Below, piece after piece: positions 17,116 through 48,225 of a stretch of 64,000 nt of DNA. Position numbers and translations under genes: made by a program. Source of the stretch: a bacterium (GTDB lineage Bacteria > Zhuqueibacterota > Zhuqueibacteria > Oceanimicrobiales > Oceanimicrobiaceae). The DNA is taken from positions 1 through 64,000 of the forward strand of contig JBHHXT010000003.1 of NCBI GenBank assembly GCA_046757165.1. Reading direction: 5' to 3'. The first letter of the stretch is position 1. Every line of letters begins with the position of its first letter. The notes beneath the pieces are model-generated. The model did not search any database. It was not told the DNA's origin and was given only the letters and a program-made list of their open reading frames with translations.

Positions 17116-19485
17116 TCATTTGATTGTCTCGTACATTCGGCCTTTGCTTTGTGTTTCCTGGCTGGAGATAAGTTGCTTCAGCTCCGATTCGAATTCCTTG
17201 ATCGAAGCATGCCGTTTGTCCGGATTCTTGGAAAGGGCCTTTGCAAGGAGGTTGTTCAACTGTGCAGGGAGGTCTGACCTGACGGTGCAGACGGGCCTGG
17301 GATCGTCGACCAGGATTTTCATCCTGACCGTGGCTGCCGAGTCTGCCCGGAATGGATTGAGGGTGGTTAGACTTTCATACAGCAAGGTGGCGAGTTGAAA
17401 AATGTCGCAGCTTTGGGTAAGCTTGACTCTCTGGATCTGCTCCGGCGAGGTATAGGCGAGCACCTCGACCTCCTCGATGCGGATTTCGTCGGTGTACCAC
17501 AGTTGCAGCATCCCGCCGTCTACCAGCTTGACGTCGTTGTGCGCCATCAGGAACACGTTGTCCGGCCTGAGGTTCCGGTGCCAGACCTGGCTTTGATGGT
17601 AGGTGGCCAGGACTTTGCAAATCCGGATGAACAACTCCAGGATCTCCCCGGCAGGAAGCTGTTTTTGTTTTGACAAATGCTGCCGCAGGCTTGTGCCCTC
17701 GATATATTCCCGCACGAAGTAGAGGCAGTCCGCTTGCTCACCCGCGTCATAAATCACACTGATGTTGGGTTGGTTGATGCGGTTCAGATTTCGGATCTCT
17801 TCGTAGAACTGCTTTTTGAGGGTGGCGAACTGTTTGAACGCCGTCAGGGCCTTGGTGTGGTAGGTTTTGATGATCACCGAACGTTCCAGTTGAGGGTCGT
17901 AGCCCCGATAGGTCGCTCCGAGAGAGTTCTGTTTCAGGGTTTCGGTGATTTCGTATTTGCCGTACTGCTTGCTTCTCGACGGCTGCGTATCTTTGGCCGG
18001 CCCGTTAGTCATAACTTCATAAACAACGTGCTCGTGCGGAAAAAAGGGCAATCGAAACGCCCCCAGCCGATTCAGCTTGACCTTGCTGACTTGATTGGAG
18101 ATTTCGTCGCTAACACGGATGATGTTCCCGCTGGTTGCCGCCTTGTCTGTGCCATTGGTGTTCGGTGTCAGAGTCAGATTGTGAATCTTGAAGGCTTTCC
18201 GGATTTCGCGTATGCCCTGATGTTCCAGGTCCTGGAAGGGGATGGGGCTGCAGTGCAGGGTGGCGCGCAGCTCGATCAGCTCGAATTCTTCCACGACCTG
18301 ATTATAACGCTCGAGCTTGTCGAGAATGTCGATCGCCTCGTGCAGCATTTTTGCCGGATTGGTGCCCAGGGCAACCATGCCATCCCTGGTGGTGTACAGG
18401 GTCATGCCATGGGTTTTGACGAGGTCGTTTGAGATGAGCTGGATGAATGTTTGGAAAGGCAGCCTGGAGGTCTCAGGGCTGTGGTCGAAATTGCTGATTT
18501 CGAAGATAGCAAGGGTGTTGGTCTCACGCTCCAGTTGGGTCTTGCTGGCGTTCGGGGTCTCGTTTGCGGTGGTGCGCGAGGGCGTCTGAATTCTCTCCAG
18601 CAAGTCTCTTGTCAAACTGAAGCCGGGTTGAATTTCCAGCGGCAGGTTTGCTGTTTCGGTAACTTCGTCAATTTCCTCGATGGTTTTTTCGAGCAGAAAG
18701 AACTCGTATTCGTCATCCTGGGGTTTTGCTGATCCTCTGCGTAGGGCCAGAAACAGGTTTCTGGTGTCGAGATAGGAGTCGAATTCTCTGATCCTGGCAA
18801 TAGGCCCCTGGATATCTCTGTGTTTCAAACAATATTGTGCATAGGCTGGAGAGAGGATGAAGTACTGGCCAATTTCCTCTGCGCTCGCCTTTTTTTCAAG
18901 CAGCGTATGACAAATGGCTTCCAGGTAGAGCGCGTTCTTATTCGATTTGAGATAGAGCTCTCTGAGAATTTGCAGCGTTTCATCAAATCTCTTGTCACGC
19001 CAGGCAGTACTCAGAAACAGAGAGAGCAGCTCAGGGTTGTCGATACAGTCCAGCAGAGTTTGCCGGATTTCCGGCACCGTGATGGTCTCGGTTGTCTCCT
19101 GAAAGATCTTTTCTAACGCCGTCCGAATCTGGTCTTCAAATGGCGGTGAGAAACTCAGCGAGCGGCGGAAGACGCGCAACGCGGGTTCCGTGGTGACTTC
19201 TTTTTTCAGGAACAGCGTTGCCAGGTTCAGATGCAGATTCTCGTCATCAGGCTCGTTGTTTATCGCTTTGCCATAGACTTTGAGCGCCTCTTCGGAGGTG
19301 CACTCTGTTCTGGCGAGAGCGATGGCGTAGTTCAGCAGCAATTCCCGGTCATCGGAATGTTGGCTGACCAGTTGCCAGAACTTCTCCACGGCCTTTTCGT
19401 TTTCGCCGTTTTCCAGATAGGCCCGGGCGAGGGCCTTGACCAGCTCGACGACTTTTTTGTCTTTCAGGTGTTCAGAATTGGTCAT
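17116..19485 (-). CDS. TPR + degenerate cyclase-like domain + Ser/Thr pseudokinase (copy B)
   Basis: Kinase-like C-terminus with VIIK but HRN for HRD and DGG for DFG; paralog of 38410-40890. Confidence 0.8.
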   Translation of the reverse strand: MTNSEHLKDKKVVELVKALARAYLENGENEKAVEKFWQLVSQHSDDRELLLNYAIALARTECTSEEALKVYGKAINNEPDDENLHLNLATLFLKKEVTTEPALRVFRRSLSFSPPFEDQIRTALEKIFQETTETITVPEIRQTLLDCIDNPELLSLFLSTAWRDKRFDETLQILRELYLKSNKNALYLEAICHTLLEKKASAEEIGQYFILSPAYAQYCLKHRDIQGPIARIREFDSYLDTRNLFLALRRGSAKPQDDEYEFFLLEKTIEEIDEVTETANLPLEIQPGFSLTRDLLERIQTPSRTTANETPNASKTQLERETNTLAIFEISNFDHSPETSRLPFQTFIQLISNDLVKTHGMTLYTTRDGMVALGTNPAKMLHEAIDILDKLERYNQVVEEFELIELRATLHCSPIPFQDLEHQGIREIRKAFKIHNLTLTPNTNGTDKAATSGNIIRVSDEISNQVSKVKLNRLGAFRLPFFPHEHVVYEVMTNGPAKDTQPSRSKQYGKYEITETLKQNSLGATYRGYDPQLERSVIIKTYHTKALTAFKQFATLKKQFYEEIRNLNRINQPNISVIYDAGEQADCLYFVREYIEGTSLRQHLSKQKQLPAGEILELFIRICKVLATYHQSQVWHRNLRPDNVFLMAHNDVKLVDGGMLQLWYTDEIRIEEVEVLAYTSPEQIQRVKLTQSCDIFQLATLLYESLTTLNPFRADSAATVRMKILVDDPRPVCTVRSDLPAQLNNLLAKALSKNPDKRHASIKEFESELKQLISSQETQSKGRMYETIK

Positions 19486-21320
19486 GACGCTGCGCCACTT
19501 TGCAATTTCTTGATCTTGTTACTCAGCTCCCGTTCCATAATCGCAATCGCATTGCCGTCTGTCCGCCCTTCTGTGAGATAGTAATTGGCGACAATAGAAT
19601 TGATCTCCGCCCGCTTGGGGGTGAGGAGGTGCAACTTCAAAACCATTTCGAAGATCTTGATCGCCTGCTTATCCCGGCGATCTTCGAGTAAGTAGAGGTT
19701 GGCCAGGACCGGGTAGAGCTTGACTTTTTCCGGTTTCTTGTCGAGAGATTTCTCATAATTTTCAGCGGCTTTGGCATAGTTTCCCTGTAATAAGTACAGG
19801 CGTGCTCGGGTCGTTGGCGAAAATATGAGCGCGCCAGCCACCGGCAGAAGCAAGACAGAAAGCGTCGCCCCGATCCATAAAAAGACATTGCTTCCGGACT
19901 CTTGTGAGATTTGGCTTTGGTTATTGTTTTTCTGGAGGTTGAATTGTGCGTCAGCCAGCTTATTGTTGATATTCTCGTAGTCCGGATCCAGGAGCTTTAC
20001 TTTTTCAAAGGCCAGCACTGCCTGCAGCCAGTCGCCGTTTTGGAGCGCGAACAGCCCGTCGCGATACAGGGTGTCCACCGCGGTGGATTGTTGCGTCAAG
20101 GCGTGTCTGATGCTGATGAGCTGCGCTTCGATATCCCTGAAGCCCGGGCTCAGGGTCTCCAGCTCCTTGAAAGATGCCAACGCCTGGTCCCACCTTTTGG
20201 CCGCCATCTGAGCTGTGCCCTGCTCATAGAGCTCGGTTAGCTGCGATTCTCGTGCTTGCGCCCTGGACCGTCCCTGTTTGACCTGGCGCACCAGCCTGGC
20301 GACATCCTTGTAGCCGGGGTCGATGTTCTGAACGCTGGCGAAGTGGTTGAGCGCCTGGCGCCAGTTTTGGCTCCGCAGAGCGGCAACACCGTTTTGGTAG
20401 GTGCGCTCCAGCTCATCCTCCTGAACCGCGTTGTCTGCCAGGTCGCGGAGTCGCTGCAGCCTGGCCTGGGCATCGCGAAAGTTGGCATCCGCTTTGACGA
20501 TTTGTTCCAGCAATTTGATCGCTTCCTGCCAATTCTTCTCCTGTGCAAGCTTTGCGGCGCGGTCGTAAAGCGCGTTTGTGTTTCGGCTTTGCCGGTTCGC
20601 CTGCAAAGCCGTCTTTGCTTCCCGCACTTTGGCCTGAACCTCGCGGAAGCTCGGGTCCGATTGTATAACTTCGTTGAATGCCGCCAGTGCCTGCTCATAG
20701 CGTTCATTATTGAAATAGGACAGGCCGCGGTGGTAGACCTCGTTGAGTGATTTCTTGTCTGTCGCCTCCCTGAGCAACCGGTCGAACTCGCGTGCGTTTT
20801 GAGGCCAAAGGTCTCTGCCTTGCTCCAGCTCGATCACGGCCTGGGCAAACTGGCCGCGCAGCATATAGATTTGACCGAGCTCGTAGGCGATGCGTCCTTT
20901 CAAAGCGCGGTTGTTCGCCAGATCTTTTGCTCCTTTGAGCGCCTCCCGGGCGCGCTCGATGTTGCCCACAGTTGCATGCAGCGTGCCGAGCTCAAACAGG
21001 ATCCTGGTTTTGATATCGTTGTTCAGGGCATAGGGATTGGTGAAGTATGCTTTGTTGAGGGCGACTTCTGCTTCGGGATACAACCCCTTGGTTTTGTATG
21101 CCAGCCCCAGGTAGAAATATGCTTCGACGTAGTTCGGATCGAGCTGCGTGCTGCGCTCAAATGCGTCGATTCTATCGTCGACTGCGGTTGCGTCCAGTCC
21201 TTTTTGAAACCAGTCGGATGCTGATGTTTGGCTGTGGAGGGACGGGATGAAAACCCCTGTGACGATAGCAAAAGCGGCGACCGAACTCAACCGGTTCAAC
21301 AGTGATAGACCGTTTGTCAT
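19482..21320 (-). CDS. Exported TPR protein with TM anchor and cytoplasmic TPR-like tail
   Basis: Signal peptide, TPR repeats (P-x-Y/F-x-D/E-A/V/I), TM near aa 480-500; tail paralogous to 40907-41317. Confidence 0.8.
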   Translation of the reverse strand: MTNGLSLLNRLSSVAAFAIVTGVFIPSLHSQTSASDWFQKGLDATAVDDRIDAFERSTQLDPNYVEAYFYLGLAYKTKGLYPEAEVALNKAYFTNPYALNNDIKTRILFELGTLHATVGNIERAREALKGAKDLANNRALKGRIAYELGQIYMLRGQFAQAVIELEQGRDLWPQNAREFDRLLREATDKKSLNEVYHRGLSYFNNERYEQALAAFNEVIQSDPSFREVQAKVREAKTALQANRQSRNTNALYDRAAKLAQEKNWQEAIKLLEQIVKADANFRDAQARLQRLRDLADNAVQEDELERTYQNGVAALRSQNWRQALNHFASVQNIDPGYKDVARLVRQVKQGRSRAQARESQLTELYEQGTAQMAAKRWDQALASFKELETLSPGFRDIEAQLISIRHALTQQSTAVDTLYRDGLFALQNGDWLQAVLAFEKVKLLDPDYENINNKLADAQFNLQKNNNQSQISQESGSNVFLWIGATLSVLLLPVAGALIFSPTTRARLYLLQGNYAKAAENYEKSLDKKPEKVKLYPVLANLYLLEDRRDKQAIKIFEMVLKLHLLTPKRAEINSIVANYYLTEGRTDGNAIAIMERELSNKIKKLQSGAAS

Positions 21321-21385
21321 GACACCTTCTTAATTGTTGCTTCTCGAGATACCTGAGGGTCGATCGTGGACCCTCGAGTCAGTGA

Positions 21386-23881
21386 TCAGGCTTTGCTTGC
21401 GCGAGCCTGGTTTTGTGCTATCTTCCTTTCACGCGCACTTTTGGTTCTGTAAGTGATAAACCCGACCGCAAGGAACAGCAATCCCACGGTAGCCGCCAGG
21501 ATATTGTATGCGGCAGAGCTTGGAGGGGCGTAGGCTGCGTACCCCGTGTGCTGCGCGTTGCCATACGCCTGGCCCCACACCACGTGGTTCTCGCTGATCC
21601 GTGAGTTGCTCTGGATCGTGTAGATGTGCCCATCTTTACGCCGGAAAATGAGATCGAGATGGCCGTTGCCTTCCAGGTCAGCCACCAGGAATGGGGAAAC
21701 GACCGGGTTGCCCTCGTTTTGAAACCGAGCAATGATCTTGCCGCTGCGACCGTTGAAGATGAAAACCGAGCCGCCAACACTGCCCATCACCACGTCGTTG
21801 CCGCCATCCTTATCCAGGTCCACGAGCGTTGTGGGCGTGGTGAAGAAGTCATCGCCATCGGCGTAGTACTCCCAGGCCACTTTCTTGCGTTGCCTGGAAT
21901 CTGCTGCGCCATGCAACACCTTCAAGGAGCGATTGGAGATCAAGACGATATCCTCAAACTCGTCATCGTTCAAGTTTCCAGACACCGGCGCAAGCGCCTC
22001 GTCGATGAAATTGAATTCGTTGTGCAGCTTTTCATGCCACAGCCGGTTGAACGTGTTGCTTTCGATGGCGAGGTGGCTTCCGCTGGTCGAGGCGAGCACC
22101 AGGTCGATCAGGCCATTTCCGTTCACGTCTGTCATCGCGATGGGATAGCGCAGCATGTGCTCCTTCGTGCCGTCGTCCGTCGCCGTGCTGACCGCCTGGT
22201 TGAAATCAAACACGCTTCGGACCGCGCCGGCACCGCCATCGATGATGAGCAGCTTGCCTTCATCGGTCCCCACAAATACTTCGGCCCTGCCATCACCATC
22301 CCAGTCCATAGAGGAGGGCACGGCGTCGATGGTCAGCCCGGTCTCGAGGCGCTTCCAGACCATCTGAAAGACATCGCCGTAACCAATATGCACCTGACCC
22401 GTGCGCGTGCAGATGGCGACATCGGGCAGGTCATCGCCGTTGAGGTCATTGACCACGGCCGGCCCGCTGACCATGTCTCCCAGGATAGGACTCAGCCAGA
22501 TTTCCGCGCCGTTGCTGCCATCGAGCGCGCGCAGACGGCCGTCCTGCCCGACGACAACCACGTCCTGCAAGCGATTCTTGTTCAGATCGGCCAGCACGAT
22601 CGGAATGTGCGGCATGATGCGGACCTGGTCGTTCTGCCAAACCGTGTTCTTGGTGCTCCCTTCCAGGGCCTTCAGTCGACCGGCGGCGTCAGTGAAAACA
22701 ACGTTGACCCTGCCATCACCGGTGAGATCCGCGGCCGCAAGATTCGCCTGCGAGTGGCTCCGGTCGCGGGCAAAGGCGAGCTGCTTTGACGCGGCTTCAT
22801 CCTGGTACCAGGTTTCCTCAACGACTTTGAGCTTGTCCGGCTTGTTGGTGACCGCCAGGCGGGTTTGACAGGAGATTCCCAGCAAAACGAGCGTCGAGAG
22901 CGCGAACACCACGGATGACATCATCGCGAGTGTGTAGGCATGACGGACCCACCAGGTGCCGGCTTTTTTCGGCGGTTTCAGATCCGGATTGGCCCGACTG
23001 ATCATGCGAAGGATCGTGCTCTTCTGGTCGCTGACGATTTCGATTTCATCCCCCTCATAGACCGGATACTCGTCCTCCGGCTGCAATTTGACCTGGTTGA
23101 CGTACGTCCGGGTCTTGCTGCGTTTGTCACTGACATAGAATTTGTTCTTCCGGTAGCTGACCGTGGCATGCCGGCGTGAGATGCTGGGATCGAGCGCCCC
23201 TTTCTCGGTGTTGCGAATGACAATGTCATTGAGCGTGTTGTCACGGCCGATTTTGGTGTCTCCGAGGTTGAGGGGATATTTTTTGCCGATGTAGGGCCCA
23301 TAGACGGCGACCAGGGAATAGGCGGATTGCGCGCGGCTGTTCTGTTTTGTTTGCGGGGCCGCTGAATCGAGCGGGGGAGCCTCTGGCAACGCCTCGATTT
23401 CATAAAACTCGCTGGTCTGCGCCTCAGCAGGCGTGGTTTCGACCGAAACGGTGTCGGTGATGGAAGACTTGCGCCCGTCCGGCTTCGCCGAGGGGTAGTG
23501 GTAGGCGTTGCCGAAATCATCCTCGCCAATGACCTCGATTTCCTCTGACTGAGAATCGAAGGTGTAGGGTTTGTTGTCGAAAGTAATGGTGAGCCCGCCC
23601 ACCGACAGCTCATCCCCATGGACAAACTGCAAGCGATAGCGCAGCGGACGACCATTGATCAGAATGGGCGGTGTTTCGCTCAGAGGCTCCAGATAGAAAC
23701 TGTTGTTTTGCCGTTCGATTCTGAGCTGCTTGCTGGCGAGGGGTTGACTCCGAAGAGCGATGTCGTTGTCCGGCGCTGCCCCCAGCGTGTAAACCGACTT
23801 CGACCTCTCGAGTTCGATGACTTGCACGATTTCAGATTTTTTCTTGATGATAAGCTTTGGCATAGCGGGAACCTTCATCAT
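21386..23881 (-). CDS. Tandem FHA - TM - FG-GAP beta-propeller - TM protein (copy B)
   Basis: IGRD...ISRRHA FHA motif; about 8 D-x-D/N-x-D/N-G-type repeats; two TM segments. Confidence 0.85.
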   Translation of the reverse strand: MMKVPAMPKLIIKKKSEIVQVIELERSKSVYTLGAAPDNDIALRSQPLASKQLRIERQNNSFYLEPLSETPPILINGRPLRYRLQFVHGDELSVGGLTITFDNKPYTFDSQSEEIEVIGEDDFGNAYHYPSAKPDGRKSSITDTVSVETTPAEAQTSEFYEIEALPEAPPLDSAAPQTKQNSRAQSAYSLVAVYGPYIGKKYPLNLGDTKIGRDNTLNDIVIRNTEKGALDPSISRRHATVSYRKNKFYVSDKRSKTRTYVNQVKLQPEDEYPVYEGDEIEIVSDQKSTILRMISRANPDLKPPKKAGTWWVRHAYTLAMMSSVVFALSTLVLLGISCQTRLAVTNKPDKLKVVEETWYQDEAASKQLAFARDRSHSQANLAAADLTGDGRVNVVFTDAAGRLKALEGSTKNTVWQNDQVRIMPHIPIVLADLNKNRLQDVVVVGQDGRLRALDGSNGAEIWLSPILGDMVSGPAVVNDLNGDDLPDVAICTRTGQVHIGYGDVFQMVWKRLETGLTIDAVPSSMDWDGDGRAEVFVGTDEGKLLIIDGGAGAVRSVFDFNQAVSTATDDGTKEHMLRYPIAMTDVNGNGLIDLVLASTSGSHLAIESNTFNRLWHEKLHNEFNFIDEALAPVSGNLNDDEFEDIVLISNRSLKVLHGAADSRQRKKVAWEYYADGDDFFTTPTTLVDLDKDGGNDVVMGSVGGSVFIFNGRSGKIIARFQNEGNPVVSPFLVADLEGNGHLDLIFRRKDGHIYTIQSNSRISENHVVWGQAYGNAQHTGYAAYAPPSSAAYNILAATVGLLFLAVGFITYRTKSARERKIAQNQARASKA

Positions 23882-26448
23882 TTCTTGGGTAGATTGAACT
23901 CGATCAGATTCAAAGCCGCTGCGCTGATCACTACAGACTGCTCCCGGTACTCATAGCCATTCTTGCTGGTGCGAAAAAGATAGAGCCCGGGTGCGAGGCT
24001 GCCGTTGACCGTCCCTTCCTGATCGGTAATGTCAAACCGCTCGGGTGTGGCCGCGGGATTGTCCAGGGATTTGAGCCTGACTTCGACATTGCTGAGCGGG
24101 GCGTGTGTTTCTTTGTCGAGGATGACAACCGAGTAGCGGCCGTTGGCCGGCTCCATTCTGGCGGTCACAATCCTGTCCCTGGCCGAAACCTTGATGCGCA
24201 CATCTTTGTAGCCCGCTTTTGAAAAGGTCGCATAGTACTCCTGTGGCGCGAGATTGACCACAAAAGGCGTGCGCCTGCCGGCTAAGACGGTTTTCTTGCC
24301 GCGCACCAACCTGGTGACAGCGGCTTTCAAATCTTTGCTCTTGCCATCGGTTGCGTCATAGGCCACAAACCTGACCTTGCGAGTCAATGACGCAAACATC
24401 TTTTCAGGCGTCTTGTTATTGACCATCACCGTGAGGGTGCGTGGGTTGTAGCCTTTTTTCTCGAGCACAATTTTGTGCCTGGCCGCGGTCAAAAAAACGC
24501 GACTCTTGCCGGTCGTGCCGACAGGATTCGGGTTGTTGTCGAGGTAAATGGCCGCGTTCTCCGGCGTCGAATGGATGACGACATACTTCCCGAAACGGCC
24601 GCGCACTTTGTAATGTAGCGTTGGGTTCGTGACCTTTTCAAACGACCACAACCGCCGGTCGTCGATCTCCTCCAGCATCTCTTCGGTATCGAGCGCAAAG
24701 CCGGTCAGCTCGCTGAAGCCGGCTTTGGCGAGCTCGAGCTCGCAGCGCTCCCCGACTTCCCAGGTCACCGAGCAGGGGGTTGTCTGGCCATACTTGACAT
24801 TGTTGATGTAAACCTGAGCGCCCGATGGCTCAGATGCAATCTCCAGTGTTGTCTTGAAGCGAAAAGTGTACGGAGCGTTGCCGTTGCGCATCTGTTCCCC
24901 CTTGACTTCCGCCTGGCCTTTTCCCGGAACGAACAAAGATTTCACAATCGGCCGGTAGGGCTCGAGCTTGAGCTTGAGCTCGTAGACCCCGGGCTCGATC
25001 TTGTCGATGGTCAACGGGGTGACGCCTTTGATAAGCTTGTCATTCAAGTAGACCCGGGCGCCATTTGGCACAGAGACGACTTTTATGGCAGGGGGCAAGA
25101 TGAAGTCGTACACGCCCGCGCCAAGCCCTGTCCATTGAAAGAATACATCCAGAAGCAGAAACAAGGCCACGACTGCGCCGGTGATCCACAATGTTCGCTT
25201 CAGGCCACTGCGATTTTCGCGTGTGGAGAGTCGTACGACGTCGATGACCGTCTTTATCTCATCCCCCACCTCGAAGTAATCCGGTGGCTTGACCAGAGAC
25301 GTGGCAGTCGTGGGTTGTGGCAGGGAGGCCAGATTCTCTGTTTTGACTTCGTGCTTAGAGCGGCTGGTGTGCTCGCCATTCGCGACCTCGGTTTGCGAGG
25401 TGGAATTGTTCTGAACTCCCTGTGGAGCCGGGGATTTTTTTCCCACATCATCGAGCACCACATCAGAGAGTTCATCGGAATGTGCCAGTCCAAATTTCTT
25501 CACAGGCGGACTGAGGGGGCCCACAGGCTCTGTGCACACCCGGACAAAAGTGCCAAGCTCCGTGTCGATGGCTGCGGCATCGCTGTTCAACACCAGGTAC
25601 GTGACCAGATCGATATAAAACTGGTTGGCATTTTGATACCGTTTTTGCGGAGATTTCTCCAGGGCCTTGCTCATGACTTGCTGCAGCGGTTTGGGTACTC
25701 GAGCTGAGTGTTTGAGTTTGAGTCGGCCATTCCGCAGCGTTTCGATAATCATGTGCTGTTCCCGGTGGGAGAAGAACCGTCTGCCTTCCAGCAGCTCGTA
25801 CAAAACCAGACCGAGGGAAAAAATGTCCGAGCGCCTGTCCATCGTCAACGCCGCGTTGACATGTTCCGGCGACATGTACTGGACTTTGCCTTGCAGCATG
25901 AGCGAATCTTTTTCCTCGATCGCCGCCTTCTGGGCGCCCGCAATGCCAAAGTCGATGAGCTTGACGCCGCCGGATTTGGAAATCATGATGTTGCTCGGCG
26001 AGACGTCCTGGTGCACGAGGTTGAGCGGCTCGTGATTTTCCGTATTGCTGCAGTTGTGGGCATAATCGAGCGCCTTACAGATTTCTGCCACGATGTGGAC
26101 GGCCAGATGTTGCGGCAACGCGCGCTCCTTCGCTTTGCTTTGCTTTAACAAGGTGCTCAGGTCCAGGCCATCGATGTACTCCATGACGATGTAGAATTGT
26201 CCCGAGTCCGTCCGCACCAGATCGAAAATGTGAACAATGTTCTGGTGGTTCATCTTCGCGACGTGACGGGCTTCCTTCTGGAACTGCTCGATATACCAGG
26301 CGTCCTGCAAGAGATCGCGATTGATTTCCTTGACGGCGATGTCTTTGGCCAGCACGCTGTCGTAGCCCTTGTAGATGGTGCCAAATCCCCCGCGCTTGAT
26401 CACCGTGATGAGCTGATAGCGGTTGTTGAGTAGCTTGAGCGCCTGCAT
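23878..26448 (-). CDS. Membrane Ser/Thr kinase with PEGA repeats (copy B)
   Basis: RGGFGTIY, IAVKE, HQDVSPSN, DFG, YMSPE; TM; S-x-P-x-GA-x-VY...G-x-TP PEGA repeats. Confidence 0.9.
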   Translation of the reverse strand: MQALKLLNNRYQLITVIKRGGFGTIYKGYDSVLAKDIAVKEINRDLLQDAWYIEQFQKEARHVAKMNHQNIVHIFDLVRTDSGQFYIVMEYIDGLDLSTLLKQSKAKERALPQHLAVHIVAEICKALDYAHNCSNTENHEPLNLVHQDVSPSNIMISKSGGVKLIDFGIAGAQKAAIEEKDSLMLQGKVQYMSPEHVNAALTMDRRSDIFSLGLVLYELLEGRRFFSHREQHMIIETLRNGRLKLKHSARVPKPLQQVMSKALEKSPQKRYQNANQFYIDLVTYLVLNSDAAAIDTELGTFVRVCTEPVGPLSPPVKKFGLAHSDELSDVVLDDVGKKSPAPQGVQNNSTSQTEVANGEHTSRSKHEVKTENLASLPQPTTATSLVKPPDYFEVGDEIKTVIDVVRLSTRENRSGLKRTLWITGAVVALFLLLDVFFQWTGLGAGVYDFILPPAIKVVSVPNGARVYLNDKLIKGVTPLTIDKIEPGVYELKLKLEPYRPIVKSLFVPGKGQAEVKGEQMRNGNAPYTFRFKTTLEIASEPSGAQVYINNVKYGQTTPCSVTWEVGERCELELAKAGFSELTGFALDTEEMLEEIDDRRLWSFEKVTNPTLHYKVRGRFGKYVVIHSTPENAAIYLDNNPNPVGTTGKSRVFLTAARHKIVLEKKGYNPRTLTVMVNNKTPEKMFASLTRKVRFVAYDATDGKSKDLKAAVTRLVRGKKTVLAGRRTPFVVNLAPQEYYATFSKAGYKDVRIKVSARDRIVTARMEPANGRYSVVILDKETHAPLSNVEVRLKSLDNPAATPERFDITDQEGTVNGSLAPGLYLFRTSKNGYEYREQSVVISAAALNLIEFNLPKK

Positions 26449-37786: not shown

Positions 37787-37821
37787 GAAAATCGCTCTGA
37801 TTATGAATTCAATTTACACAA

Positions 37822-37850: not shown

Positions 37851-37863
37851 CTGCCATGGTCGC

Positions 37864-38277: not shown

Positions 38278-38353
38278 GAGATGTTACTCCTTAATTTGAC
38301 GTTACTCCAATTTGTTGGCGAATTGTATGAGATTCCCCCGGGTTGTTCGGCTG

Positions 38354-38382
38354 TCACCTCCTTTCCGGCCCGCGGGTGCCGG
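38354..38382 (-). promoter_or_regulatory. Leader hairpin followed by an orphan extended Shine-Dalgarno
   Basis: Minus strand CCGGCACCCGCGGGCCGG then AAAGGAGGTGA, with no start codon at normal spacing. Confidence 0.5.
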
Positions 38383-41392: not shown

Positions 41393-42751
41393 CTATTGTA
41401 GAACAGGTAGCTGCACTCCCGACACTTTGCGAATCACATTGTTGGAGGAATCAATTAAGAAAATCGAAAAGTCCCCGCTGATGAGTGGCGTGTCATCCAG
41501 GCGATAGGGATGAATTCTGTCAATTACGGTCCCTCTTTCATCGAGCTGTGCTGTTTGATAGTCTTTCAGGCTATTGAAAAACACCACAGCCAGAACGGCA
41601 TCATCGCTCAGTGTGGAGCGAGTAATTGGCTGCGTCTGCGAAGCGATGAGGCTGCTCGAGTTTGCAGCGTTCGCCGGCAGCGCAACTTTCGTCTGGCGCG
41701 ACCCGCCGGAGCGTGAAGCGGCCATCCGTGCTTTGGGATTGAAGTTTTGTAACGCCATGCCCAGCATAAAACAGAGCAACCCGGTGAGCAAAACCAGGCC
41801 GGGAACCATAAACCTACGTCGATGAATAGTCGTCATGAGCGAATGCTGATTGGTTTGAAGTTGTGGTTCACTGTAGTTGTCATGGATGAATCTGTCTATT
41901 TTCTGACTTAGTTTATTCTCTTCTTCCGCAATGGTGGTCGAGAGTCCCTGCCGCCTGGTGTCCTTGCTATCCTGGCTGACGCGGGCGATGGCAACAGTAA
42001 TGTTGTCCGAGCCGTCTCGCCGCATCGCTTTCTGTATCAGCTTGCGCGTGAGGGCGTCGAGCGAGCCGTGGTTGCGCTCGAAGAGTCTCTTGATATCCCT
42101 GGGGCCTACCGAATTGTGCAGACCATCGGTGCACAGAATATAGGTGTCGTCTTTCTTGTACTTCTCACAATGGATATCTATTTTCACCGTGGGCCCCGTG
42201 CCCAAGGCGCGCGTGATGACATTTTTTTGTGCAAATGTTTCGATCTGCTCTTCATTGATTTCCTTGTCTTCGATCAGCTCGTTGAGCCAGGAGTGGTCTT
42301 CGGTGAGTTGAAAGACCTCCTGGTCGCTGACGCGGAAGATTCTGCTGTCCCCGACGTGCACCATGGTCGCAAATGACTTATCGAGCGAGAGTGCGACCAC
42401 CGTTGTGCCCATGCCACGCAACTTGCTGAACTGAGTCGAGATATTGTAGATTCTCCGGTTGGCCAGGCGTACCGCTGCGATGAGCCGGCAGGACGAACGC
42501 GCCAGAGTGAGCTCCTGCTCGTACAAGAAGTGCTTGACCAGCTCATCATCCATATGCTGGTAAATGTCCTGAATGGTCTCGACCGCGATCTTGCTGGCCA
42601 GACCGCCGGCAACTTGTCCCCCCATGCCGTCACAAACGATCACCAGGTTTTCGTCCTTCGAGATGTAATAGCTGTCCTCGTTGGCTTTCCGGACTTTGCC
42701 GACGTCGCTGTAGACCGCTGTTGTGGTTGTGATCCGTTTTTCTTTCAGCAT
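41393..42751 (-). CDS. PP2C (Stp1/PrpC-type) Ser/Thr phosphatase with TM
   Basis: R-x-x-NEDS, CDGMGG, HVGDSR, NVITRALG, CTDGL, DNIT; TM near aa 315-335. Confidence 0.9.
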   Translation of the reverse strand: MLKEKRITTTTAVYSDVGKVRKANEDSYYISKDENLVIVCDGMGGQVAGGLASKIAVETIQDIYQHMDDELVKHFLYEQELTLARSSCRLIAAVRLANRRIYNISTQFSKLRGMGTTVVALSLDKSFATMVHVGDSRIFRVSDQEVFQLTEDHSWLNELIEDKEINEEQIETFAQKNVITRALGTGPTVKIDIHCEKYKKDDTYILCTDGLHNSVGPRDIKRLFERNHGSLDALTRKLIQKAMRRDGSDNITVAIARVSQDSKDTRRQGLSTTIAEEENKLSQKIDRFIHDNYSEPQLQTNQHSLMTTIHRRRFMVPGLVLLTGLLCFMLGMALQNFNPKARMAASRSGGSRQTKVALPANAANSSSLIASQTQPITRSTLSDDAVLAVVFFNSLKDYQTAQLDERGTVIDRIHPYRLDDTPLISGDFSIFLIDSSNNVIRKVSGVQLPVLQ

Positions 42752-42767: not shown

Positions 42768-45530
42768 TCAATAATAGCTCAGCTTGCTTCTGGTTCGCCT
42801 GACACCGAACTGCAACCCCACCACCAACAAAATGGCGACCAAAGCCGAAGCCATGTAAGCGAAATAAATGCCACTGTTTCGTTTCAGGGCTGAGGCAGCG
42901 TTCGTGTGTTTGCTGTTGCCAAACGCCTGTCCCCAGACCACCCGTTCGGGCGTGCGACTGTTGCTGTTGAGTTTATAGAAGCGCCCATCTTCTCTCAATA
43001 CCAAAATATCGAGGGTGTGGTCATTATCAAGGTCACCGATCAGAGGCTGGCTAACCAGTTTTGACTCACCTGCCGGATGGGTGATCAGCGTTCTTCCGGT
43101 GGCGCCGTCGAGAATATAGAGCGTGCCACGTTGGCCGGTGACCAGGACATCCAGCGTGCCGTTTTTGTCGAAATCGGCCAGAATGGGCTGGCCGATGAAG
43201 AGGTCGTTGGATGGGGTCCGGAATTCCCACCAGACCATTTTCCTATCCCGGCCTGCACCCGTACCCTCGAGAGCAATCAGCCTGCCCGCGGAAGTCTGGC
43301 TCACGACGTCCGCCAGGTTGTCGCCGTCCAGATCTCCCAGCACGATCCCCTGCGATCCGGCCCCGGCTTCAGTTGCCAGACTATCGTTGAGCGAATACCA
43401 CATTCTGTGCAGACTGGCGCCGTCGAGCGCCAGAATATTTCCCTGTTCAGAATGGATGGCCAGGTCTGGGAGAGTATCTCCATCGAGATCCGCCACGGCA
43501 ACCGGGCCTCGAACTTGGTTGTTCTGGTCAAAACTGCCAATGGCTTTGTTGAGTTCTTCGTTCACATTCAGTTCTTTCGTGATTTTTTGCTCGACTGCGT
43601 CGATCAGGAGCACTTTGCCGGTTTCGGTGCCGATCAGCAGGGTCGTTAACCCGTCCCCTGTTCTATCGGCGACGCTGATGATCGAAAGAACCGGCACCTG
43701 CAAATCCATCTTGACCCAGCGCAGGGTTCCCAGATTGGAAAGCCCGATGTAGACCGCGTTCTCGACCGAGGCGACCGCCACATCTTTCAGACCGTCACCG
43801 TTGAAATCGGCGACGACCGGAGGCCCGGTAAGGGGGCCTGCCAGGATTGGGCTTTTCCAGATTTCCAGCCCCCATTTGCCGTCGATGGCGTGCACGCGGT
43901 CGTCGGTTGATATGACGACGAGATCTGGCAGTCCTTTGCCATACAAGTCTTCGACCACGACCGGGAACTCCTGAATGGCTTTGAAATCATAGTTTGTCCA
44001 CAACGGGTCCTTGGACCGCCCGTTGATGCAGTTCAGAAGCCCCTTGTTGTTGACGTAGATCAAGTCCACAGTTTCATCGCCGTTGACATCCGCAATGGCT
44101 GGATGAATGGCAAAACTGACCCTCTCCCGGGGCTCGAATTTTGAATCGATGTCGCTCGCACCCCACACGGCCTCAGAGAGTTGCAATTCACTCGGCCGAC
44201 TGGTAATCAAACGTCTGTTTGCAAACGATTCTCCAAAGACAACAAGCGCCAGCAAGATCAGCAGAGCCGAGACCGCGTTGAACAACGGCAGTCTGTAGCG
44301 TACCGTCCATCCCCCCGCCTTGCGCGGGAAGGAGTAGTCCCAGTCCCCCTCTTCAACCATCCTGAGAATATGACTTTTGCCGTCGCTCTTGATTTCAATT
44401 TCATCTCCCGCGCGGATTTGCACCTCGTGGTTGATCTCGAGCATGCGCTGGTTGAGCCAGGTTCGACTTTTGCTCCGCTTGTCCGAAAGATACCAGCGGT
44501 TATTCTTGAATCTTAGCGTCGCATGTCGTCTCGAGATCGATTGGTCGAACTTGCCCCTGGAATTCTTTTTGAGGACGATATCGTTGAGTTTTCTGTCGCG
44601 ACCAATTCGGGTTTCGGGTTCCTTTATTTTGAATTTCCGGCCCAAATAGTAGCCGTAAATGCCCAGAAGATACGCGGCCTGCGTTTCTAGTGGGCTGCCG
44701 GTCACCGCTTCCTCGGGCTTTTCGGTATCGGTGTAGAGGTCGACGGTAATGCCGCTGTTTGTGCCTTCGGGTTCCAGCGTTTCAGGGACGAGGTCACCGC
44801 CGATCAGAAAGTCCTCCGCGGCAGCGTCTGCCAGGCTCGTGCCGCCGTCCGGGTATCCGGGGCCGGGCTGTTCTTTCAAGTCGAGTACACCGTCTGGGTG
44901 GCCATACCCGTTAGCGCCTTTTTGGCCGGAGGTATGGCTTGCCGGATACTGTTCAGCATGTGACGTCGCCGGATGGTCGCTCATCCCGGGTTGGCCAGAC
45001 CGGCTGGTCGTTGCCCCATTCTCCGTGTGCCATGACGATAGCTTGAGCTGAGTCGCCGGCGGTTCACGGTTGGTTGCCAGCCAGTCGTTGAGCTGGACCA
45101 GGGATGGCACGCCGACCATTCGCTCAGCGATATTGGGGCGTGGTCCCTGGGGACTGCTCGTGCTCCTCACCGGGCGCGCAGGCTGAGCGGCCGGTGTAAC
45201 ACCAACAACCGGCAGTTCGATACCAGGGCCTGTCTCCGAGCCCAAAAAGACGATGGTATGTTTTCCTAACTTGACTTCGTCGTAATCGTGAAGGGGTGTT
45301 CGCTGCGAGATTTTGTGGCCATTGACAAATGTACCCCACTGGCTCTGCAGATCCCGCACATAGTATTGTCCGTTTTGTTGTTCAAACTGAAGATGGAAAA
45401 AAGATATAACTTCATCATTGATGATTATGTCGTTTCCTCTCTCACATCCGACAGTGAATGCCTCCATCTCGTCGGGAACTGCCAGTTTTTTTACCACCTG
45501 GCTCCCCTTTTTTATCACCAATTTCGGCAT
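42768..45530 (-). CDS. Tandem FHA - TM - FG-GAP beta-propeller - TM protein (copy A)
   Basis: Two FHA-like domains (second has IGRD...ISRRHA), ADVNGD / ADFNGDG / GDLDGD repeats, two TM segments. Confidence 0.85.
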   Translation of the reverse strand: MPKLVIKKGSQVVKKLAVPDEMEAFTVGCERGNDIIINDEVISFFHLQFEQQNGQYYVRDLQSQWGTFVNGHKISQRTPLHDYDEVKLGKHTIVFLGSETGPGIELPVVGVTPAAQPARPVRSTSSPQGPRPNIAERMVGVPSLVQLNDWLATNREPPATQLKLSSWHTENGATTSRSGQPGMSDHPATSHAEQYPASHTSGQKGANGYGHPDGVLDLKEQPGPGYPDGGTSLADAAAEDFLIGGDLVPETLEPEGTNSGITVDLYTDTEKPEEAVTGSPLETQAAYLLGIYGYYLGRKFKIKEPETRIGRDRKLNDIVLKKNSRGKFDQSISRRHATLRFKNNRWYLSDKRSKSRTWLNQRMLEINHEVQIRAGDEIEIKSDGKSHILRMVEEGDWDYSFPRKAGGWTVRYRLPLFNAVSALLILLALVVFGESFANRRLITSRPSELQLSEAVWGASDIDSKFEPRERVSFAIHPAIADVNGDETVDLIYVNNKGLLNCINGRSKDPLWTNYDFKAIQEFPVVVEDLYGKGLPDLVVISTDDRVHAIDGKWGLEIWKSPILAGPLTGPPVVADFNGDGLKDVAVASVENAVYIGLSNLGTLRWVKMDLQVPVLSIISVADRTGDGLTTLLIGTETGKVLLIDAVEQKITKELNVNEELNKAIGSFDQNNQVRGPVAVADLDGDTLPDLAIHSEQGNILALDGASLHRMWYSLNDSLATEAGAGSQGIVLGDLDGDNLADVVSQTSAGRLIALEGTGAGRDRKMVWWEFRTPSNDLFIGQPILADFDKNGTLDVLVTGQRGTLYILDGATGRTLITHPAGESKLVSQPLIGDLDNDHTLDILVLREDGRFYKLNSNSRTPERVVWGQAFGNSKHTNAASALKRNSGIYFAYMASALVAILLVVGLQFGVRRTRSKLSYY

Positions 45531-45541
45531 TTACTTAAAGC

Positions 45542-48118
45542 TTAGTTTGAAGGAAAGATTTCAAAAACTAAGTTCGTTGTATCGCCAGCCCGCGCGATAA
45601 CCGTCCGGCTCAGTTCGTTGTACCCCGCTTTCTTGACTTTGAGCACGTAGTTGCCCGCTGGCAGCCTGCCAATTCCTTCCCCGTTGACATCGGTTTGGTC
45701 GAGGAACGTCTCCTTTGAGCGTATCGGTTCTGTGGCGGTATAGTAGATGTCCGCCCCCGGGATGGGCACTTCGGTCAAGGCATCCCGTACCGATATTTCA
45801 ACCATCGTCTTCAGTGGGGGCATCTCGACAACCACAGAGTGGGCCGCTCCTCCAACCCTGATTTGCTTTCGTTCATACCCCGGCTTCGAGAAAATCGCAG
45901 TCAGGGAATAGGCCGGCAGAACGATCTTGAAGGGTGTTTGTTTGCCTCCCCTGCCCAGGTCCCGGTTGTTATGTCTAATGCTGATGAGCGTCGCACCGAT
46001 ATCCCCTCGTTCGCGGGTACTGCTATCGCGAGCCGAGAATCGAACGCTGCGTGAAAGCACGACATTGACGCGCTCACTTGAAGCCTCATCCACCACCACC
46101 GTGAGTGTTTTGCTGATAAAGTTGTCCTTTCGCATTTCCAATTTGTGACGGCCCATTGGAAGCAAGAGCCCGTCACGATTTCCGGCCATGCCAATCATCT
46201 GGCCTGTCTTGCGGTCAACGATCTCTACCCCGGATGGCACCGATTCGATGAACACCCGTTTCCTGAAAATTCCGGTGATAGCATACTTCCTGTAAGTATC
46301 ATTATATACGATCAACTCCCACAATCTGCGGTCATCGACTTCATCGAGTCCTGAAATTGTGTCGAGAGAATATTCGGCGAGTTTTTCGAACCCTGAACGC
46401 TCCAGTTCGATGGCGAGCGGGTGGCCAACTTCCCAGGTAATGGCGCACGGCGTGCGCTGGTTCAGGCGAATGCCGTTGATATAGACCTGAGCGCCCGGCG
46501 GTTCGGAAGCAATTTCAACCTCGGTGGTAAACCGGAACAAATAGGTTTGATTCCTATCCCCTTCGGCTTCGCCCTGGACGCGAATGTCGCCCTCTCTCGG
46601 CACGAACAGGGATTTGACAATGGGTTTGTAGCCGGCCAGACTGAGTTCCAGTTTATGCACCCCCGGAGCGATCTCATCGATAGCAAGCGGTGTCGTGCCC
46701 GCTACTTTCTTGTCGTCGAGAAAGAGCGTGGCATTCTCGGGCACGGTGGTGATTTCGATCGCGGGCGGAAAAACAACGTCATAGAGCCAGAGTCCAGCCC
46801 GGGTCCAGTGGTTCATGGTATCGAGAGCAAGGAACCCGGCAACGGCAATCATTAGGCCGATACAGGCTTGCACAATCCGTTTTTTGTTGTTTCTCGCTGA
46901 GATTCGCAGGACATCGATGACGGTCTTCAAATCCTCTTCGCCCTCGCCCTCGAATTCCATGGTTGAAAAATCTGTTGGAAATTGTTGCTGTGCCGGCCGC
47001 GTTCTATCCGGATACGATGGGCTCGCGTGCTTTGGCTGCAGGCGAGCCTCTGGCGGCAGCACAGGGGTTGGGTTGGCCATCTGCCAGTTGACCGAAGAGG
47101 CCAGGCCCGGGTCCTGTGACGTAAGCGGGCTGGATTCGAGCTTTTCTGGTGTGGTCGTGCTATAGTTTGGCGGAGTGATCGGAGGCGTCTGCACGGTAAA
47201 CTGGTCGGCGAGATGTGCCGCCAGGTCGTCCATGAGCTCACCCGTCTCGTTGCTGGCGATCAGGTACTGCAGCAAATCGATGTACATGTGGTTGGCGCTC
47301 TGGTAGCGCTTCGACAGGTCGATTTCCAGGGCCCGCAACAAAATCTTGACCAGGGCGTGGGGAAGTCTCTTTCCTTTCAGGGCCTTTTTGAACCACTTCG
47401 GATTCTTGCCCGCTGCGATCACCTCCTCCTGCGAGGTAAACAACCGTTCGCCGGTAATGGCTTCGAACAGCACCAGGCCCAGGGAAAACAAATCCGAGCG
47501 GTGGTCGGGGTGATTGCCCATGATGAGCTGTTCCGGTGCCATGTAAGGAATTTTGCCGCGCAGCTTGCTGTCCTTTTTGGCCTTGTGATGGCGCCGCACC
47601 GACGCAATGCCAAAGTCGATGAGTTTGACCGCGCCATAGCGGGAAATCATGATGTTGGACGGAGAGATATCCTGATGCACCAGGTTTAGCGGCTTGTTGG
47701 TGAAGGCATCACGTCGTTGATGCGCATATTCGAGCGCCATGCAGATTTCCGACACGATGTAGATCCCGAGGTGCGCCGGCATTTTCTGGTTGTATTTTCT
47801 GGCGTGACGGTTGATTTTTTCCAAATCGATACCGTCGATATACTCCATGATGATATAGAGATGTCTGTCGGTGGTCTTTTTGAGCTCGTAGATGTGAACG
47901 ATGTTGTTGTGGCTCAGCTTGGCGATGTTGAGCGCCTCTTCCTGGAACATGTCGAGGTACTTCGGATCATCTAACAGGTTTGGCGCGATCTCCTTGATGG
48001 CGACGGGTTTGTTGAGCTTTCTGTCCATTCCGTAGTAAACAATTCCGAAGCCACCTTTCTTAATCTCGCGAACGATCTCGTATTTCTCATCTAACATCCG
48101 ATTGCCATGAAGCGTCAT
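45542..48118 (-). CDS. Membrane Ser/Thr kinase with PEGA repeats (copy A)
   Basis: KGGFGIVY, VAIKE, HQDISPSN, DFG, YMAPE; TM; PEGA repeats. Confidence 0.9.
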   Translation of the reverse strand: MTLHGNRMLDEKYEIVREIKKGGFGIVYYGMDRKLNKPVAIKEIAPNLLDDPKYLDMFQEEALNIAKLSHNNIVHIYELKKTTDRHLYIIMEYIDGIDLEKINRHARKYNQKMPAHLGIYIVSEICMALEYAHQRRDAFTNKPLNLVHQDISPSNIMISRYGAVKLIDFGIASVRRHHKAKKDSKLRGKIPYMAPEQLIMGNHPDHRSDLFSLGLVLFEAITGERLFTSQEEVIAAGKNPKWFKKALKGKRLPHALVKILLRALEIDLSKRYQSANHMYIDLLQYLIASNETGELMDDLAAHLADQFTVQTPPITPPNYSTTTPEKLESSPLTSQDPGLASSVNWQMANPTPVLPPEARLQPKHASPSYPDRTRPAQQQFPTDFSTMEFEGEGEEDLKTVIDVLRISARNNKKRIVQACIGLMIAVAGFLALDTMNHWTRAGLWLYDVVFPPAIEITTVPENATLFLDDKKVAGTTPLAIDEIAPGVHKLELSLAGYKPIVKSLFVPREGDIRVQGEAEGDRNQTYLFRFTTEVEIASEPPGAQVYINGIRLNQRTPCAITWEVGHPLAIELERSGFEKLAEYSLDTISGLDEVDDRRLWELIVYNDTYRKYAITGIFRKRVFIESVPSGVEIVDRKTGQMIGMAGNRDGLLLPMGRHKLEMRKDNFISKTLTVVVDEASSERVNVVLSRSVRFSARDSSTRERGDIGATLISIRHNNRDLGRGGKQTPFKIVLPAYSLTAIFSKPGYERKQIRVGGAAHSVVVEMPPLKTMVEISVRDALTEVPIPGADIYYTATEPIRSKETFLDQTDVNGEGIGRLPAGNYVLKVKKAGYNELSRTVIARAGDTTNLVFEIFPSN

Positions 48119-48209
48119 CCTAGCCGTCGACCTTTTGGAGAGTTTTCCTGATTAATAGACAGAAGGAAAGAAAATCCATTGTAAAAACCGCTTGATTTGT
48201 GTGACCATT

Positions 48210-48225
48210 AGCAATTAGTATGCCA
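48210..48225 (-). promoter_or_regulatory. Sigma-54 (-24/-12) promoter
   Basis: Minus strand TGGCATACTAATTGCT (GG-N10-GC), ~90 bp upstream of kinase A. Confidence 0.75.

Follow-up and report, generated by a model that had tools for sequence, protein, structure and literature searches.

A predicted trans-envelope Ser/Thr phosphorylation module encoded around a type IV pilus operon in one uncultured family of KSB1 bacteria

We analysed a 64,000-nucleotide stretch of DNA (the window, G000:C3:1-64000) from a bacterium that most likely belongs to the KSB1 phylum, since most of its closest named relatives carry the label candidate division KSB1/Zhuqueibacterota; its family is designated f1 here. On the minus strand, from 48118 down to 17116, 19 co-oriented genes with spacings of -4 to 184 nt form a single run, in which the genes of a type IV pilus (T4P) lie between two signalling cassettes, A and B. 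The most far-reaching explanation of this locus, to which we give a probability of about 0.4, is a pilus controlled by a Ser/Thr complex from its own operon: a kinase would write a phosphothreonine into the N-terminal tail of the assembly ATPase PilB, a protein with FHA domains and a beta-propeller would read it, and a pseudocyclase-pseudokinase would act as scaffold, the whole having replaced the two-component regulators that flank the same pilus in related families. The best explanation, that an older trans-envelope Ser/Thr module of KSB1 bacteria became coupled in a single family to a type IV pilus capable of retraction, has about even odds on the comparative evidence.

A first-pass annotation of the window had described this run as a candidate new system. 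Every gene that it had placed there is present and in the proposed order. Pfam and NCBIfam scans of the window proteins, from which our domain assignments are taken, back its domain list (kinase with PEGA, two FHA domains with FG-GAP, PP2C, tetratricopeptide repeats (TPR)) and its pilus assignments (T2SSF for PilC, T2SSE for PilB, PilT, PilN with SPOR, secretin). The two cassettes are paralogous, as it had claimed, with identities of 37% between the kinases, 35% between the FHA proteins and 24% between the pseudokinases; the transmembrane (TM)-TPR protein of cassette A and the C-terminus of the TPR-TM protein of cassette B compare at 37%. The conserved synteny that it had asked for was also found. 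The arrangement recurs across many f1 genera and is not due to chance.

The evidence for a functional coupling of pilus and module comes from changes that are specific to f1. The pseudokinase protein of cassette A, PsK_A, has in an otherwise variable linker the motif [LI]-T-[YF]-[ED]-D (L-T317-Y-D-D in the window), which is present in 16 of 16 type A sequences and in 0 of 45 others, and which is absent from the A-like protein of the genome G021. PilB has an N-terminal tail of the form [ILM]-T-x-E-I in 15 of 19 f1 sequences and in none of 14 from other families, and such family-specific changes fit the control by phosphorylation that had been proposed for the pilus. Among database homologues of PilB the tail was found in 32 of 39 (28 by the strict pattern and four by eye), the Thr being constant and the neighbouring residues variable. 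Among 26 PilB proteins encoded beside metagenomic pilins, a single one has the tail, and it comes from the only such PilB locus with a cassette A. In both motifs the Thr is never exchanged for Ser, as expected of FHA ligands. The earliest branches of the PsK_A tree (G002, G018 and G017) have a shortened tail or none, which suggests a stepwise gain. PilT, PilO and the pilin were also compared and have no convincing Thr site specific to the family.

Gene order inside f1 points in the same direction. The gene for PsK_A immediately precedes that for the pilin in 12 loci, 10 from genomes and 2 from metagenomes. The succession of cassette A, pilus and cassette B is complete in G004, G011 and G017; cassette B has no match to the TPR-TM gene in G008, runs off the contig in G012 and consists of the pseudokinase only in G014, while the pilus of G003 has no cassette B next to it. 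Retention of cassette A before the pilin and erosion of cassette B suggest that A is the fixed partner and B is dispensable. The two input channels of the first-pass annotation are therefore not required.

The module consists of a receptor kinase with PEGA repeats, a twin-FHA/beta-propeller protein, a PP2C phosphatase, a TPR-membrane protein and a TPR-pseudocyclase-pseudokinase, and across the phylum genomes it mostly stands alone, without a pilus. Among the same 133 phylum genomes, the module marker occurs in 56 and pilMN in 67. In family f8 the module is present in 8/8 genomes and pilMN in 1/8; in families f7, f9 and f11 jointly, the respective counts are 1/36 for the module and 26/36 for the pilus. 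Relatives of the FHA protein of cassette A (FHA_A) occur in 29 of 41 genomes, including all 20 of f1. A scan of all species genomes yielded 79 module loci, 27 of type A/B and 52 of neither type. Pil genes accompany 19 of the 27, seven end at a contig edge and one is a true exception, whereas none of the 52 has pil genes (only 25 of them are flanked on either side by 2 kb or more); kinase, PP2C and pseudokinase are found together in 33 of these 52. The module was likewise found in none of 19 pilus loci from other families, the pilin end being in view in 17, and inspection of N-termini identified response-regulator-like open reading frames in or beside several of these clusters. The source genome contains a third full cassette on contig C12, away from pilus genes and beside amino-acid biosynthesis genes, in the order TPR-TM, kinase, FHA, PP2C, TPR-TM, pseudokinase, and partial copies on contigs C315, C17, C34 and C51.

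Stand-alone module loci and cassette-free pilus loci lead us to reject the idea that the module originated as a device dedicated to the pilus, which is how the cassette had been regarded. Homologous pilus clusters without cassettes had been named as an observation that would speak against the system, and they are indeed what was found beyond f1 (0/19 with a cassette), whereas inside f1 the linkage is kept. The coupling is thus confined to one uncultured family and the module is generic; within f1, the link between pilus and module looks real from the sequence comparisons.

Other module-related loci were seen in passing. FHA-propeller and PP2C pairs with 28-31% identity are present in L154 and L157, records labelled Clostridia and Elusimicrobia, and the reach of the module may thus extend beyond KSB1. 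Divergent to the type-C cassette and beside it lies a five-gene operon without Pfam match (C12:28194-33840, plus strand), which is also found beside type-C cassettes in L036 (2362-7843), L013, L037, L038 and L039 and is a candidate partner of the stand-alone module. At a contig end, G000:C73:16534-20796 (minus strand) encodes a secretin-like protein, an FHA-TM-TPR protein and a kinase of the module's family, in which HGN replaces HQD and the T-V-I-D motif is present; here a further filament locus, Tad-like in kind, may be paired with kinases of this family.

By their motifs, the kinases of the module are predicted to be active membrane Hanks kinases. The Gly loop, K42, E61, H148, D150 and DFG are invariant in 27 of 27 aligned sequences. 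The kinases are of the non-RD type (HQD), the activation loop has no conserved Thr, and a single TM segment is followed by periplasmic PEGA repeats. The segment before the membrane comprises about 100 variable residues, an acidic patch and then T-[VI]-I-D, present in 72 of 75 full-length kinases. The sequence pT-x-x-D is a classic FHA ligand. In the FHA proteins, the second domain (FHA2) is canonical in 79 of 82 cases, and the Gly-Arg of FHA1 is kept in only 4 of 82. Kinase A has lost the Thr in G001 and G018, and the FHA2 domains of these two genomes are two of the three that are not canonical; the third is from G002, where no kinase lies upstream, and the remaining kinase exception (L131) still reads T-I-F-D. 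In G021 the cassette has no FHA gene and its kinase has no juxtamembrane motif. With the case of G001 and G018, this makes two independent events in which the kinase motif is lost where the FHA domain has decayed or is missing, which is suggestive and no more.

The phosphatase matches the Stp1 family (232.7 bits, cut-off 230), and all four PP2C metal-ligand motifs were detected by pattern match in 53 of 64 homologues. It is the single PP2C of the run, in agreement with the earlier suggestion of one phosphatase for two cassettes. Active kinases, an intact PP2C and one intact FHA domain per FHA protein support at motif level the Thr-phosphorylation circuit that had been postulated, and such a circuit very probably works. 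It may, as had also been proposed, act on pilus assembly, retraction or surface sensing.

A fold search with the whole PsK_A protein matched kinases only, and the middle domain was therefore folded separately. The model (pLDDT 91) has the class III nucleotidyl cyclase fold, with a Foldseek E value of 1.5e-9 and a TM-score of 0.73 against Ma1120, and a VIA Z score of 19.1 (rmsd 2.3, 158 residues aligned). Searches by sequence gave only faint matches for this domain, with E 0.53 in the PDB and Pfam Guanylate_cyc recognized in 5 of 26. Judged by eye against real cyclases, the first metal-binding Asp is missing in 26 of 26 rows, the second is replaced by Asn in type A and retained in type B, and the transition-state N-x-x-x-R motif is absent from the cyclase-domain rows shown. 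As modelled, the middle domain is a catalytically degenerate class III cyclase domain. The name pseudokinase given in the first-pass annotation is correct for the dead kinase; the cyclase-fold domain between the TPR and the pseudokinase had been overlooked.

The catalytic Asp is present in 0 of 61 pseudokinases examined, which also have no Gly loop (six of 67 candidates fell outside the pattern and were left out), and in 2 of 68 database representatives. The beta-3 Lys and the Asp of DFG are kept, suggesting that the pseudokinases may still bind nucleotide. The closest solved fold is PknB, and a profile search gave 62 representatives at E<=1e-10, most of which share the architecture. The gene just upstream of the pseudokinase encodes the TM-TPR protein, and the cytoplasmic TPR of the latter is similar to the N-terminal TPR of the pseudokinase protein (E 7e-7), which suggests a route by which the pseudokinase protein might reach the membrane. 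No part of TM-TPR A (136 aa) is periplasmic. The system built around the pseudocyclase-pseudokinase fusion is a widespread and undescribed five-gene signalling module.

On the pilus side, PilB (Pfam T2SSE, 344.6 bits; best NCBIfam match type_IV_pilB, below its cut-off), PilC (T2SSF, 111.5 bits), PilT (TIGR01420, 315.7 bits against a cut-off of 319.1, far above other families) and the secretin (PF00263, 97.7 bits) were readily assigned. The genes annotated earlier as pilMN and pilO/P stand in part. The PilN portion matches PDB 3jc8 (E 1.5e-9; Pfam PilN in 12 of 23 members) and PilO is weakly recognized (five of 24 members match Pfam PilO, with E 6.9e-5 at best), and the PilM and PilP parts of the alignment complex have no match by sequence. 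The major pilin has, as modelled, a type IV pilin fold: comparison with pilin clusters (Atlas model) gave TM-scores of 0.61-0.68, both sides being predicted models.

The pilin begins with M-G-Q-Q-Q immediately after a Shine-Dalgarno site, with an in-frame stop two codons upstream, and comparison of starts across homologues indicates that a class III leader peptide is absent from the major pilin and the three minor pilins. In the first minor pilin the fifth residue from the initiator Met is mostly Glu or Gln, and Gly2 is not conserved. The minor pilin-like genes match no Pfam or NCBIfam family. Prepilin peptidase (PF01478) has two matches in the genome, both on other contigs and none in the pilus cluster; by hand count it was not found in 24 of 67 pilMN-positive genomes, and PF06750 was not found in any of five PF01478-negative pilMN genomes that were re-tested. 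RLG is the expected reading of the MshEN-like motif for cyclic di-GMP. In PilB (residues 24-34; 36330-36360, minus strand) this motif has RLS instead, as in 31 of 39 homologues, making the binding of cyclic di-GMP by PilB doubtful. Away from the cluster, a second leaderless pilin-like gene (C312:132-524, minus strand) and a protein similar to the large minor pilin in its C-terminal part (C85:16498-18222, plus strand) were noted. Kinase B directly follows the secretin in L107, L040 and L102, and the minor pilins follow pilB in G002 and G018, as in other families; by these comparisons the pilus gene order has changed within f1.

Each of the 13 type-A kinases has a predicted sigma-54 site 42-233 nt upstream (two of 15 rows under this label were stand-alone kinases by tree and were reassigned). 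Such a site is also found before 15 of 42 stand-alone kinases, including the copy on C12, and upstream of none of 13 f1 pilins, none of 57 pilB genes, 1/51 pilC genes, 1/48 pilT genes and 1/13 type-B kinases (non-canonical). The window has two sigma-54 matches (the second at 53925-53941), which is chance level, and the prediction therefore rests on conservation. RpoN is encoded in the 6.09 Mb genome, which has only 32 strict sites, that of kinase A among them, and a receiver-sigma-54 activator is encoded in the divergent operon (53944-55317). A single promoter at the head of the run is probable by these criteria, and the pilus is quite likely co-expressed with the module from it. Scans for sigma-70 promoters were uninformative (promoter-like sites 13 versus 8.9 and 17 versus 9.1), and terminator predictions were at shuffle level.

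The pilin is preceded by a conserved RNA element, composed of a hairpin, AGGAGGUGA, and a strand complementary to the hairpin loop. AGGAGGUGA, which we take to be the complement of the 16S rRNA 3' end, has no start codon in range. Searches of the fetched loci and the source genome found the element once per locus, in the window and in 12 of 12 related type-A loci. Loop and strand of the same element form 6.0 of 7 pairs, against 5.4 when swapped, and none of 2000 permutations reaches the score of the native combinations, a figure that is not a probability because the sequences are related. There is no match in Rfam at E<=5. A hairpin between the pilin and the next gene is present in 10 of 10 related loci folded. 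Together, the 5' element and the 3' hairpin would let one long transcript give an excess of pilin mRNA; the element could equally mark a separate pilin transcript. Its invariant GGAGGUG motif was also seen 79-106 nt upstream of four pilins of other families, and upstream of control genes in 0-2 of 25-61 cases. The pilB-pilT gap (34413-34596, minus strand; -11 to 275 nt long in relatives) has several hairpins, one with A and U runs like a terminator.

The mechanism that we propose combines these elements. A single long transcript, driven by sigma-54, would start at kinase A and continue across the pilus genes into cassette B, and its pilin segment would be protected or excised by way of the 5' pseudoknot and the 3' hairpin. 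Periplasmic PEGA, propeller and TPR domains would cluster the membrane receptors in response to an envelope or contact signal. The non-RD kinase would then phosphorylate its own juxtamembrane Thr (T399), at which FHA2 of the propeller protein would dock, building the complex, and the soluble pseudocyclase-pseudokinase, recruited to the membrane by TPR-TPR contact with the TM-TPR protein, would serve as adaptor or allosteric partner. In f1, kinase A would have gained two new substrates, T317 of PsK_A and T11 of PilB. Phospho-PilB, captured by FHA_A at the membrane, would gate the loading of the extension motor onto PilC, and phosphorylation may turn extension either on or off. The single PP2C would reset both cassettes, with cassette B as an accessory second input. 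The central step, direct control of PilB by way of Thr11 phosphorylated by kinase A and read by FHA_A, is proposed by analogy, and we consider it to be a toss-up.

A number of observations weigh against this proposal. The pattern T-x-x-D/E is also a helix N-capping box, and the PsK_A model starts a helix at residue 318. The PilB tail alternates in the manner of a beta-strand, with Ile rather than Asp at +3, and may be a plain docking strand. Four of 19 f1 PilB proteins do not have the full tail, though G002, G017 and G018 have PsK_A. T27 and T328 of PilC, positions that are mostly Asp or Glu in outside homologues, deserve little weight as two of only nine such switches, picked post hoc. The pilus-side correlations come from one clade and so count as one evolutionary event. 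The f8 genomes have the module in 8/8 but pilMN in 1/8, and in G002 cassette B has an A-like FHA/PP2C pair as its immediate neighbour, without an intervening pilus. Occurrence of the module without a pilus in most genomes suggests that its ancestral output was something other than the pilus.

Alternatively, the pilus operon may have been inserted behind the sigma-54 promoter of the module and the two may share nothing but a regulon, with the kinases acting elsewhere (on the envelope, the divergent Rsb/Mla operon or the downstream polysaccharide genes) and the PilB tail being a structural or docking strand. The sigma-54 site stands before 15 of 42 stand-alone kinases, including that on C12, and is therefore an ancestral trait of the module. 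In G115 and G021 the same Rsb/Mla operon is found upstream of the only cassette, in divergent orientation, and sister families in which no pilMN was found have A-like and B-like genes (G021, G022). We nevertheless regard this explanation as unlikely, if a serious one: it does not account for the invariant Thr motifs gained by PsK_A and PilB only in f1, nor for the fixation of cassette A before the pilin while cassette B erodes.

Signals might also run in the opposite direction, tension, pilin pool or motor state being sensed via the periplasmic domains or the PilB tail and relayed by the module, for example to exopolysaccharide synthesis or sigma-54 activators. PilB of Myxococcus is reportedly a signalling protein for exopolysaccharide (PMC5544727), cassette B is followed by a polysaccharide export/Wzz cluster both in the window and in G004, similar-looking genes follow the pilus genes in G003 (by inspection), and the module has three or four periplasmic sensor-like domains. 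However, the downstream neighbour varies among relatives, and the direction of signalling is not readable from sequence, the same phosphosites being compatible with this reading too; we consider the pilus improbable as the input. Finally, pilus and module may have become neighbours by chance in the ancestor of the family and may be transcribed separately, with unrelated functions. The RNA element could then mark the 5' end of an independent pilin transcript, the hairpins after the pilin and in the pilB-pilT gap would fit, and no linkage of pilus and module is seen in any other family examined. Yet f1 orthologues are only 45-80% identical while order and short gaps persist, with 9-24 nt from the last minor pilin to kinase B in five of nine loci, and such an accident appears very improbable.

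If control of the pilus by its own Ser/Thr circuit is accepted, the locus would, by analogy, work most like the Thr phosphorylation pathway of the T6SS (type VI secretion system) and parallel the Esr pathway, and it is a member of neither. In the PpkA/PppA/Fha pathway of Agrobacterium, PpkA phosphorylates Thr14 of TssL, which is then bound by Fha (PMC3953482). In both cases a membrane Hanks kinase, a PP2C and an FHA protein are encoded with an envelope machine, and a Thr near the N-terminus of a core component is the candidate switch. Unlike in the T6SS, the enclosed machine is a set of type IV pilus genes without T6SS core genes, the FHA protein is a receptor that crosses the membrane twice and combines two FHA domains with a periplasmic propeller, the TPR-TM and pseudocyclase-pseudokinase partners have no counterpart, and there are two paralogous cassettes of a module that is mostly stand-alone elsewhere. 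The actinomycete Esr pathway is linked to Esx secretion, and its secretion-locus copy has been proposed to act post-translationally; as far as passages of that report go (PMC13622651), it shares a beta-propeller sensor, a Ser/Thr kinase, a phosphatase, FHA, and paralogues both stand-alone and in the secretion locus. The same passages list MoxR, vWA and transglutaminase, none of which Pfam or NCBIfam found among the 19 genes, and a monoderm host; here the propeller and FHA domains are in one membrane protein.

With the type IVa pili of Pseudomonas, Myxococcus and Thermus the locus has in common the clustering of PilB, PilC, PilT, PilN, a PilO-like protein and a secretin; it differs by the leaderless pilins, the PilM-like/PilN/SPOR fusion and a cluster without prepilin peptidase. 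PilF of Thermus is reportedly phosphorylated. The mycobacterial PknB/PstP/FhaA/MviN circuit controls cell wall synthesis and has as its kinase PknB, an RD kinase with PASTA domains, whereas here there are a pilus, a cyclase-fold domain and an HQD kinase with PEGA repeats. In that circuit a protein that carries a pseudokinase is the substrate of an active kinase and, once phosphorylated, recruits an FHA domain, according to passages of a pseudokinase review in which cyclases, TPR, PEGA, pili and KSB1 are not mentioned (PMC12599244). In Sulfolobus, ArnA (FHA), ArnB and PP2A belong to a network in which Ser/Thr phosphorylation governs the archaellum and Aap pili (bioRxiv 10.64898/2026.08.11.744115; PMC4858521), and a census places ArnA/ArnB never in T4P loci (passages of PMC4858521). 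As these sources describe it in the parts consulted, the network is archaeal, soluble, vWA-based and encoded outside filament loci, unlike the present locus. A review of PilB control covers cyclic nucleotides, His kinases and small cofactors, and its passages on kinases deal with His kinases only (PMC11656802, in part). In the literature covered, to which most subscription journals and supplements do not belong, we found neither an operon-encoded Hanks kinase/FHA/PP2C circuit for a bacterial T4P nor this module or locus, and the main text of the KSB1 phylum paper does not mention pili or pilus (PMC11683472).

If the model is true, the T6SS-style Thr switch extends to a second class of envelope machine. 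The residues that it names (PilB T11, kinase T399 and PsK_A T317) can be addressed with soluble recombinant domains though the organism is uncultured. If the circuit indeed operates from within the operon, one could follow stepwise, within one family, how a motor came under a regulatory circuit that is new to it. The pilus aside, the locus adds an undescribed five-gene module, a pseudocyclase-pseudokinase fusion, leaderless pilins and an RNA element not listed in Rfam.

Table 1. Positions and properties of the features of the run, in window coordinates, and of the f10 loci.
Feature	Position	Strand	Remark
Predicted sigma-54 promoter (-24/-12), head of run	48210..48226	-	conserved in relatives
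Kinase A, Hanks-type non-RD (HQD), T399-V-I-D402, one TM (415-433), PEGA x3 + CarboxypepD_reg periplasmic	45542..48118	-	
FHA_A: degenerate FHA1, intact FHA2 (GR...SRRH), TM, periplasmic FG-GAP beta-propeller, second TM	42768..45530	-	
PP2C phosphatase, TM (316-334), C-terminal periplasmic part; sole PP2C of run	41393..42751	-	
TM-TPR A, 136 aa: membrane anchor + cytoplasmic TPR	40907..41317	-	
PsK_A: TPR, degenerate class III cyclase domain (about 340-530, as modelled), pseudokinase (HLN, no Gly loop)	38410..40890	-	
Conserved RNA element, predicted H-type pseudoknot, before pilin	38335..38382	-	
Major pilin, leaderless, M-G-Q-Q-Q-L-L-L start	37864..38277	-	
Strong hairpin 3' of pilin	37817..37855	-	z -3.1
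PilC platform protein	36443..37786	-	T2SSF
PilB assembly ATPase, N-terminal tail I10-T11-A-E13-I14, degenerate MshEN-like domain	34597..36429	-	
T11 codon of PilB	36397-36399	-	
PilT-family retraction ATPase	33180..34412	-	TIGR01420
Cytoplasmic domain (PilM-like by position only) fused to PilN + SPOR	31039..33099	-	
PilO-like protein, C-terminal extension	30096..31010	-	
Secretin, PilQ-like, short	28821..30056	-	PF00263
Three leaderless minor pilin-like genes	28336-28818, 27734-28324, 26516-27715	-	hydrophobic N-termini
Kinase B (HQD; juxtamembrane T400-V-I-D; TM; PEGA x3)	23878..26448	-	
FHA_B: degenerate FHA1, intact FHA2, TM, propeller, TM	21386..23881	-	
TPR-TM B: signal/anchor, periplasmic TPR array, TM (481-499), cytoplasmic TPR	19482..21320	-	
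PsK_B: TPR, degenerate cyclase, pseudokinase (HRN, DGG)	17116..19485	-	
f10 activator-kinase loci	L041:7334-10211, L059:7558-8862, L063:7066-9856, L223:857-3680		

In phylogenetic trees, A (with G021), B and C form separate old clades, the deep order of which is unresolved. A recent tandem duplication as the source of cassettes A and B found no support, A grouping with G021 (97) and the deep branching being unresolved (69). Holding A and B as one clade was borderline rejected (p-AU 0.049; 25 chosen rows, LG+G4). The divergent operon upstream of the run (48452-58141, plus strand) encodes a GAF-SpoIIE phosphatase, an anti-sigma kinase, a STAS protein, MlaE/F/D and a lipoprotein, as well as the sigma-54 activator, a lytic transglycosylase and His kinases. 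Throughout f1 this Rsb/Mla operon is the divergent neighbour of cassette A, and in G115 and G021 it faces the only cassette. A gene that is presumably polA-like, to judge by the N-terminus of its product, marks the end of cassette B in G012 and G018 and that of the lone cassette in G115 and G158. The shared neighbours suggest that the pilus operon entered an existing module locus, and such an insertion is the simplest reading of the gene orders compared.

Downstream, 464 nt from cassette B and in the same orientation, lies a cluster (1648-16651, minus strand) for polysaccharide export, a Wzz-like protein, an AAA protein that we take to be ExeA-like, and glycosyltransferase-like proteins. Four loci of family f10 differ in that the genes directly before the pilins are those of a GAF/sigma-54 activator and of a membrane Ser/Thr kinase unrelated to the module, with HND/HHD in place of HRD in the kinases of L063 and L223. 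This family may represent a second, independent pairing of the pilus with a Ser/Thr kinase.

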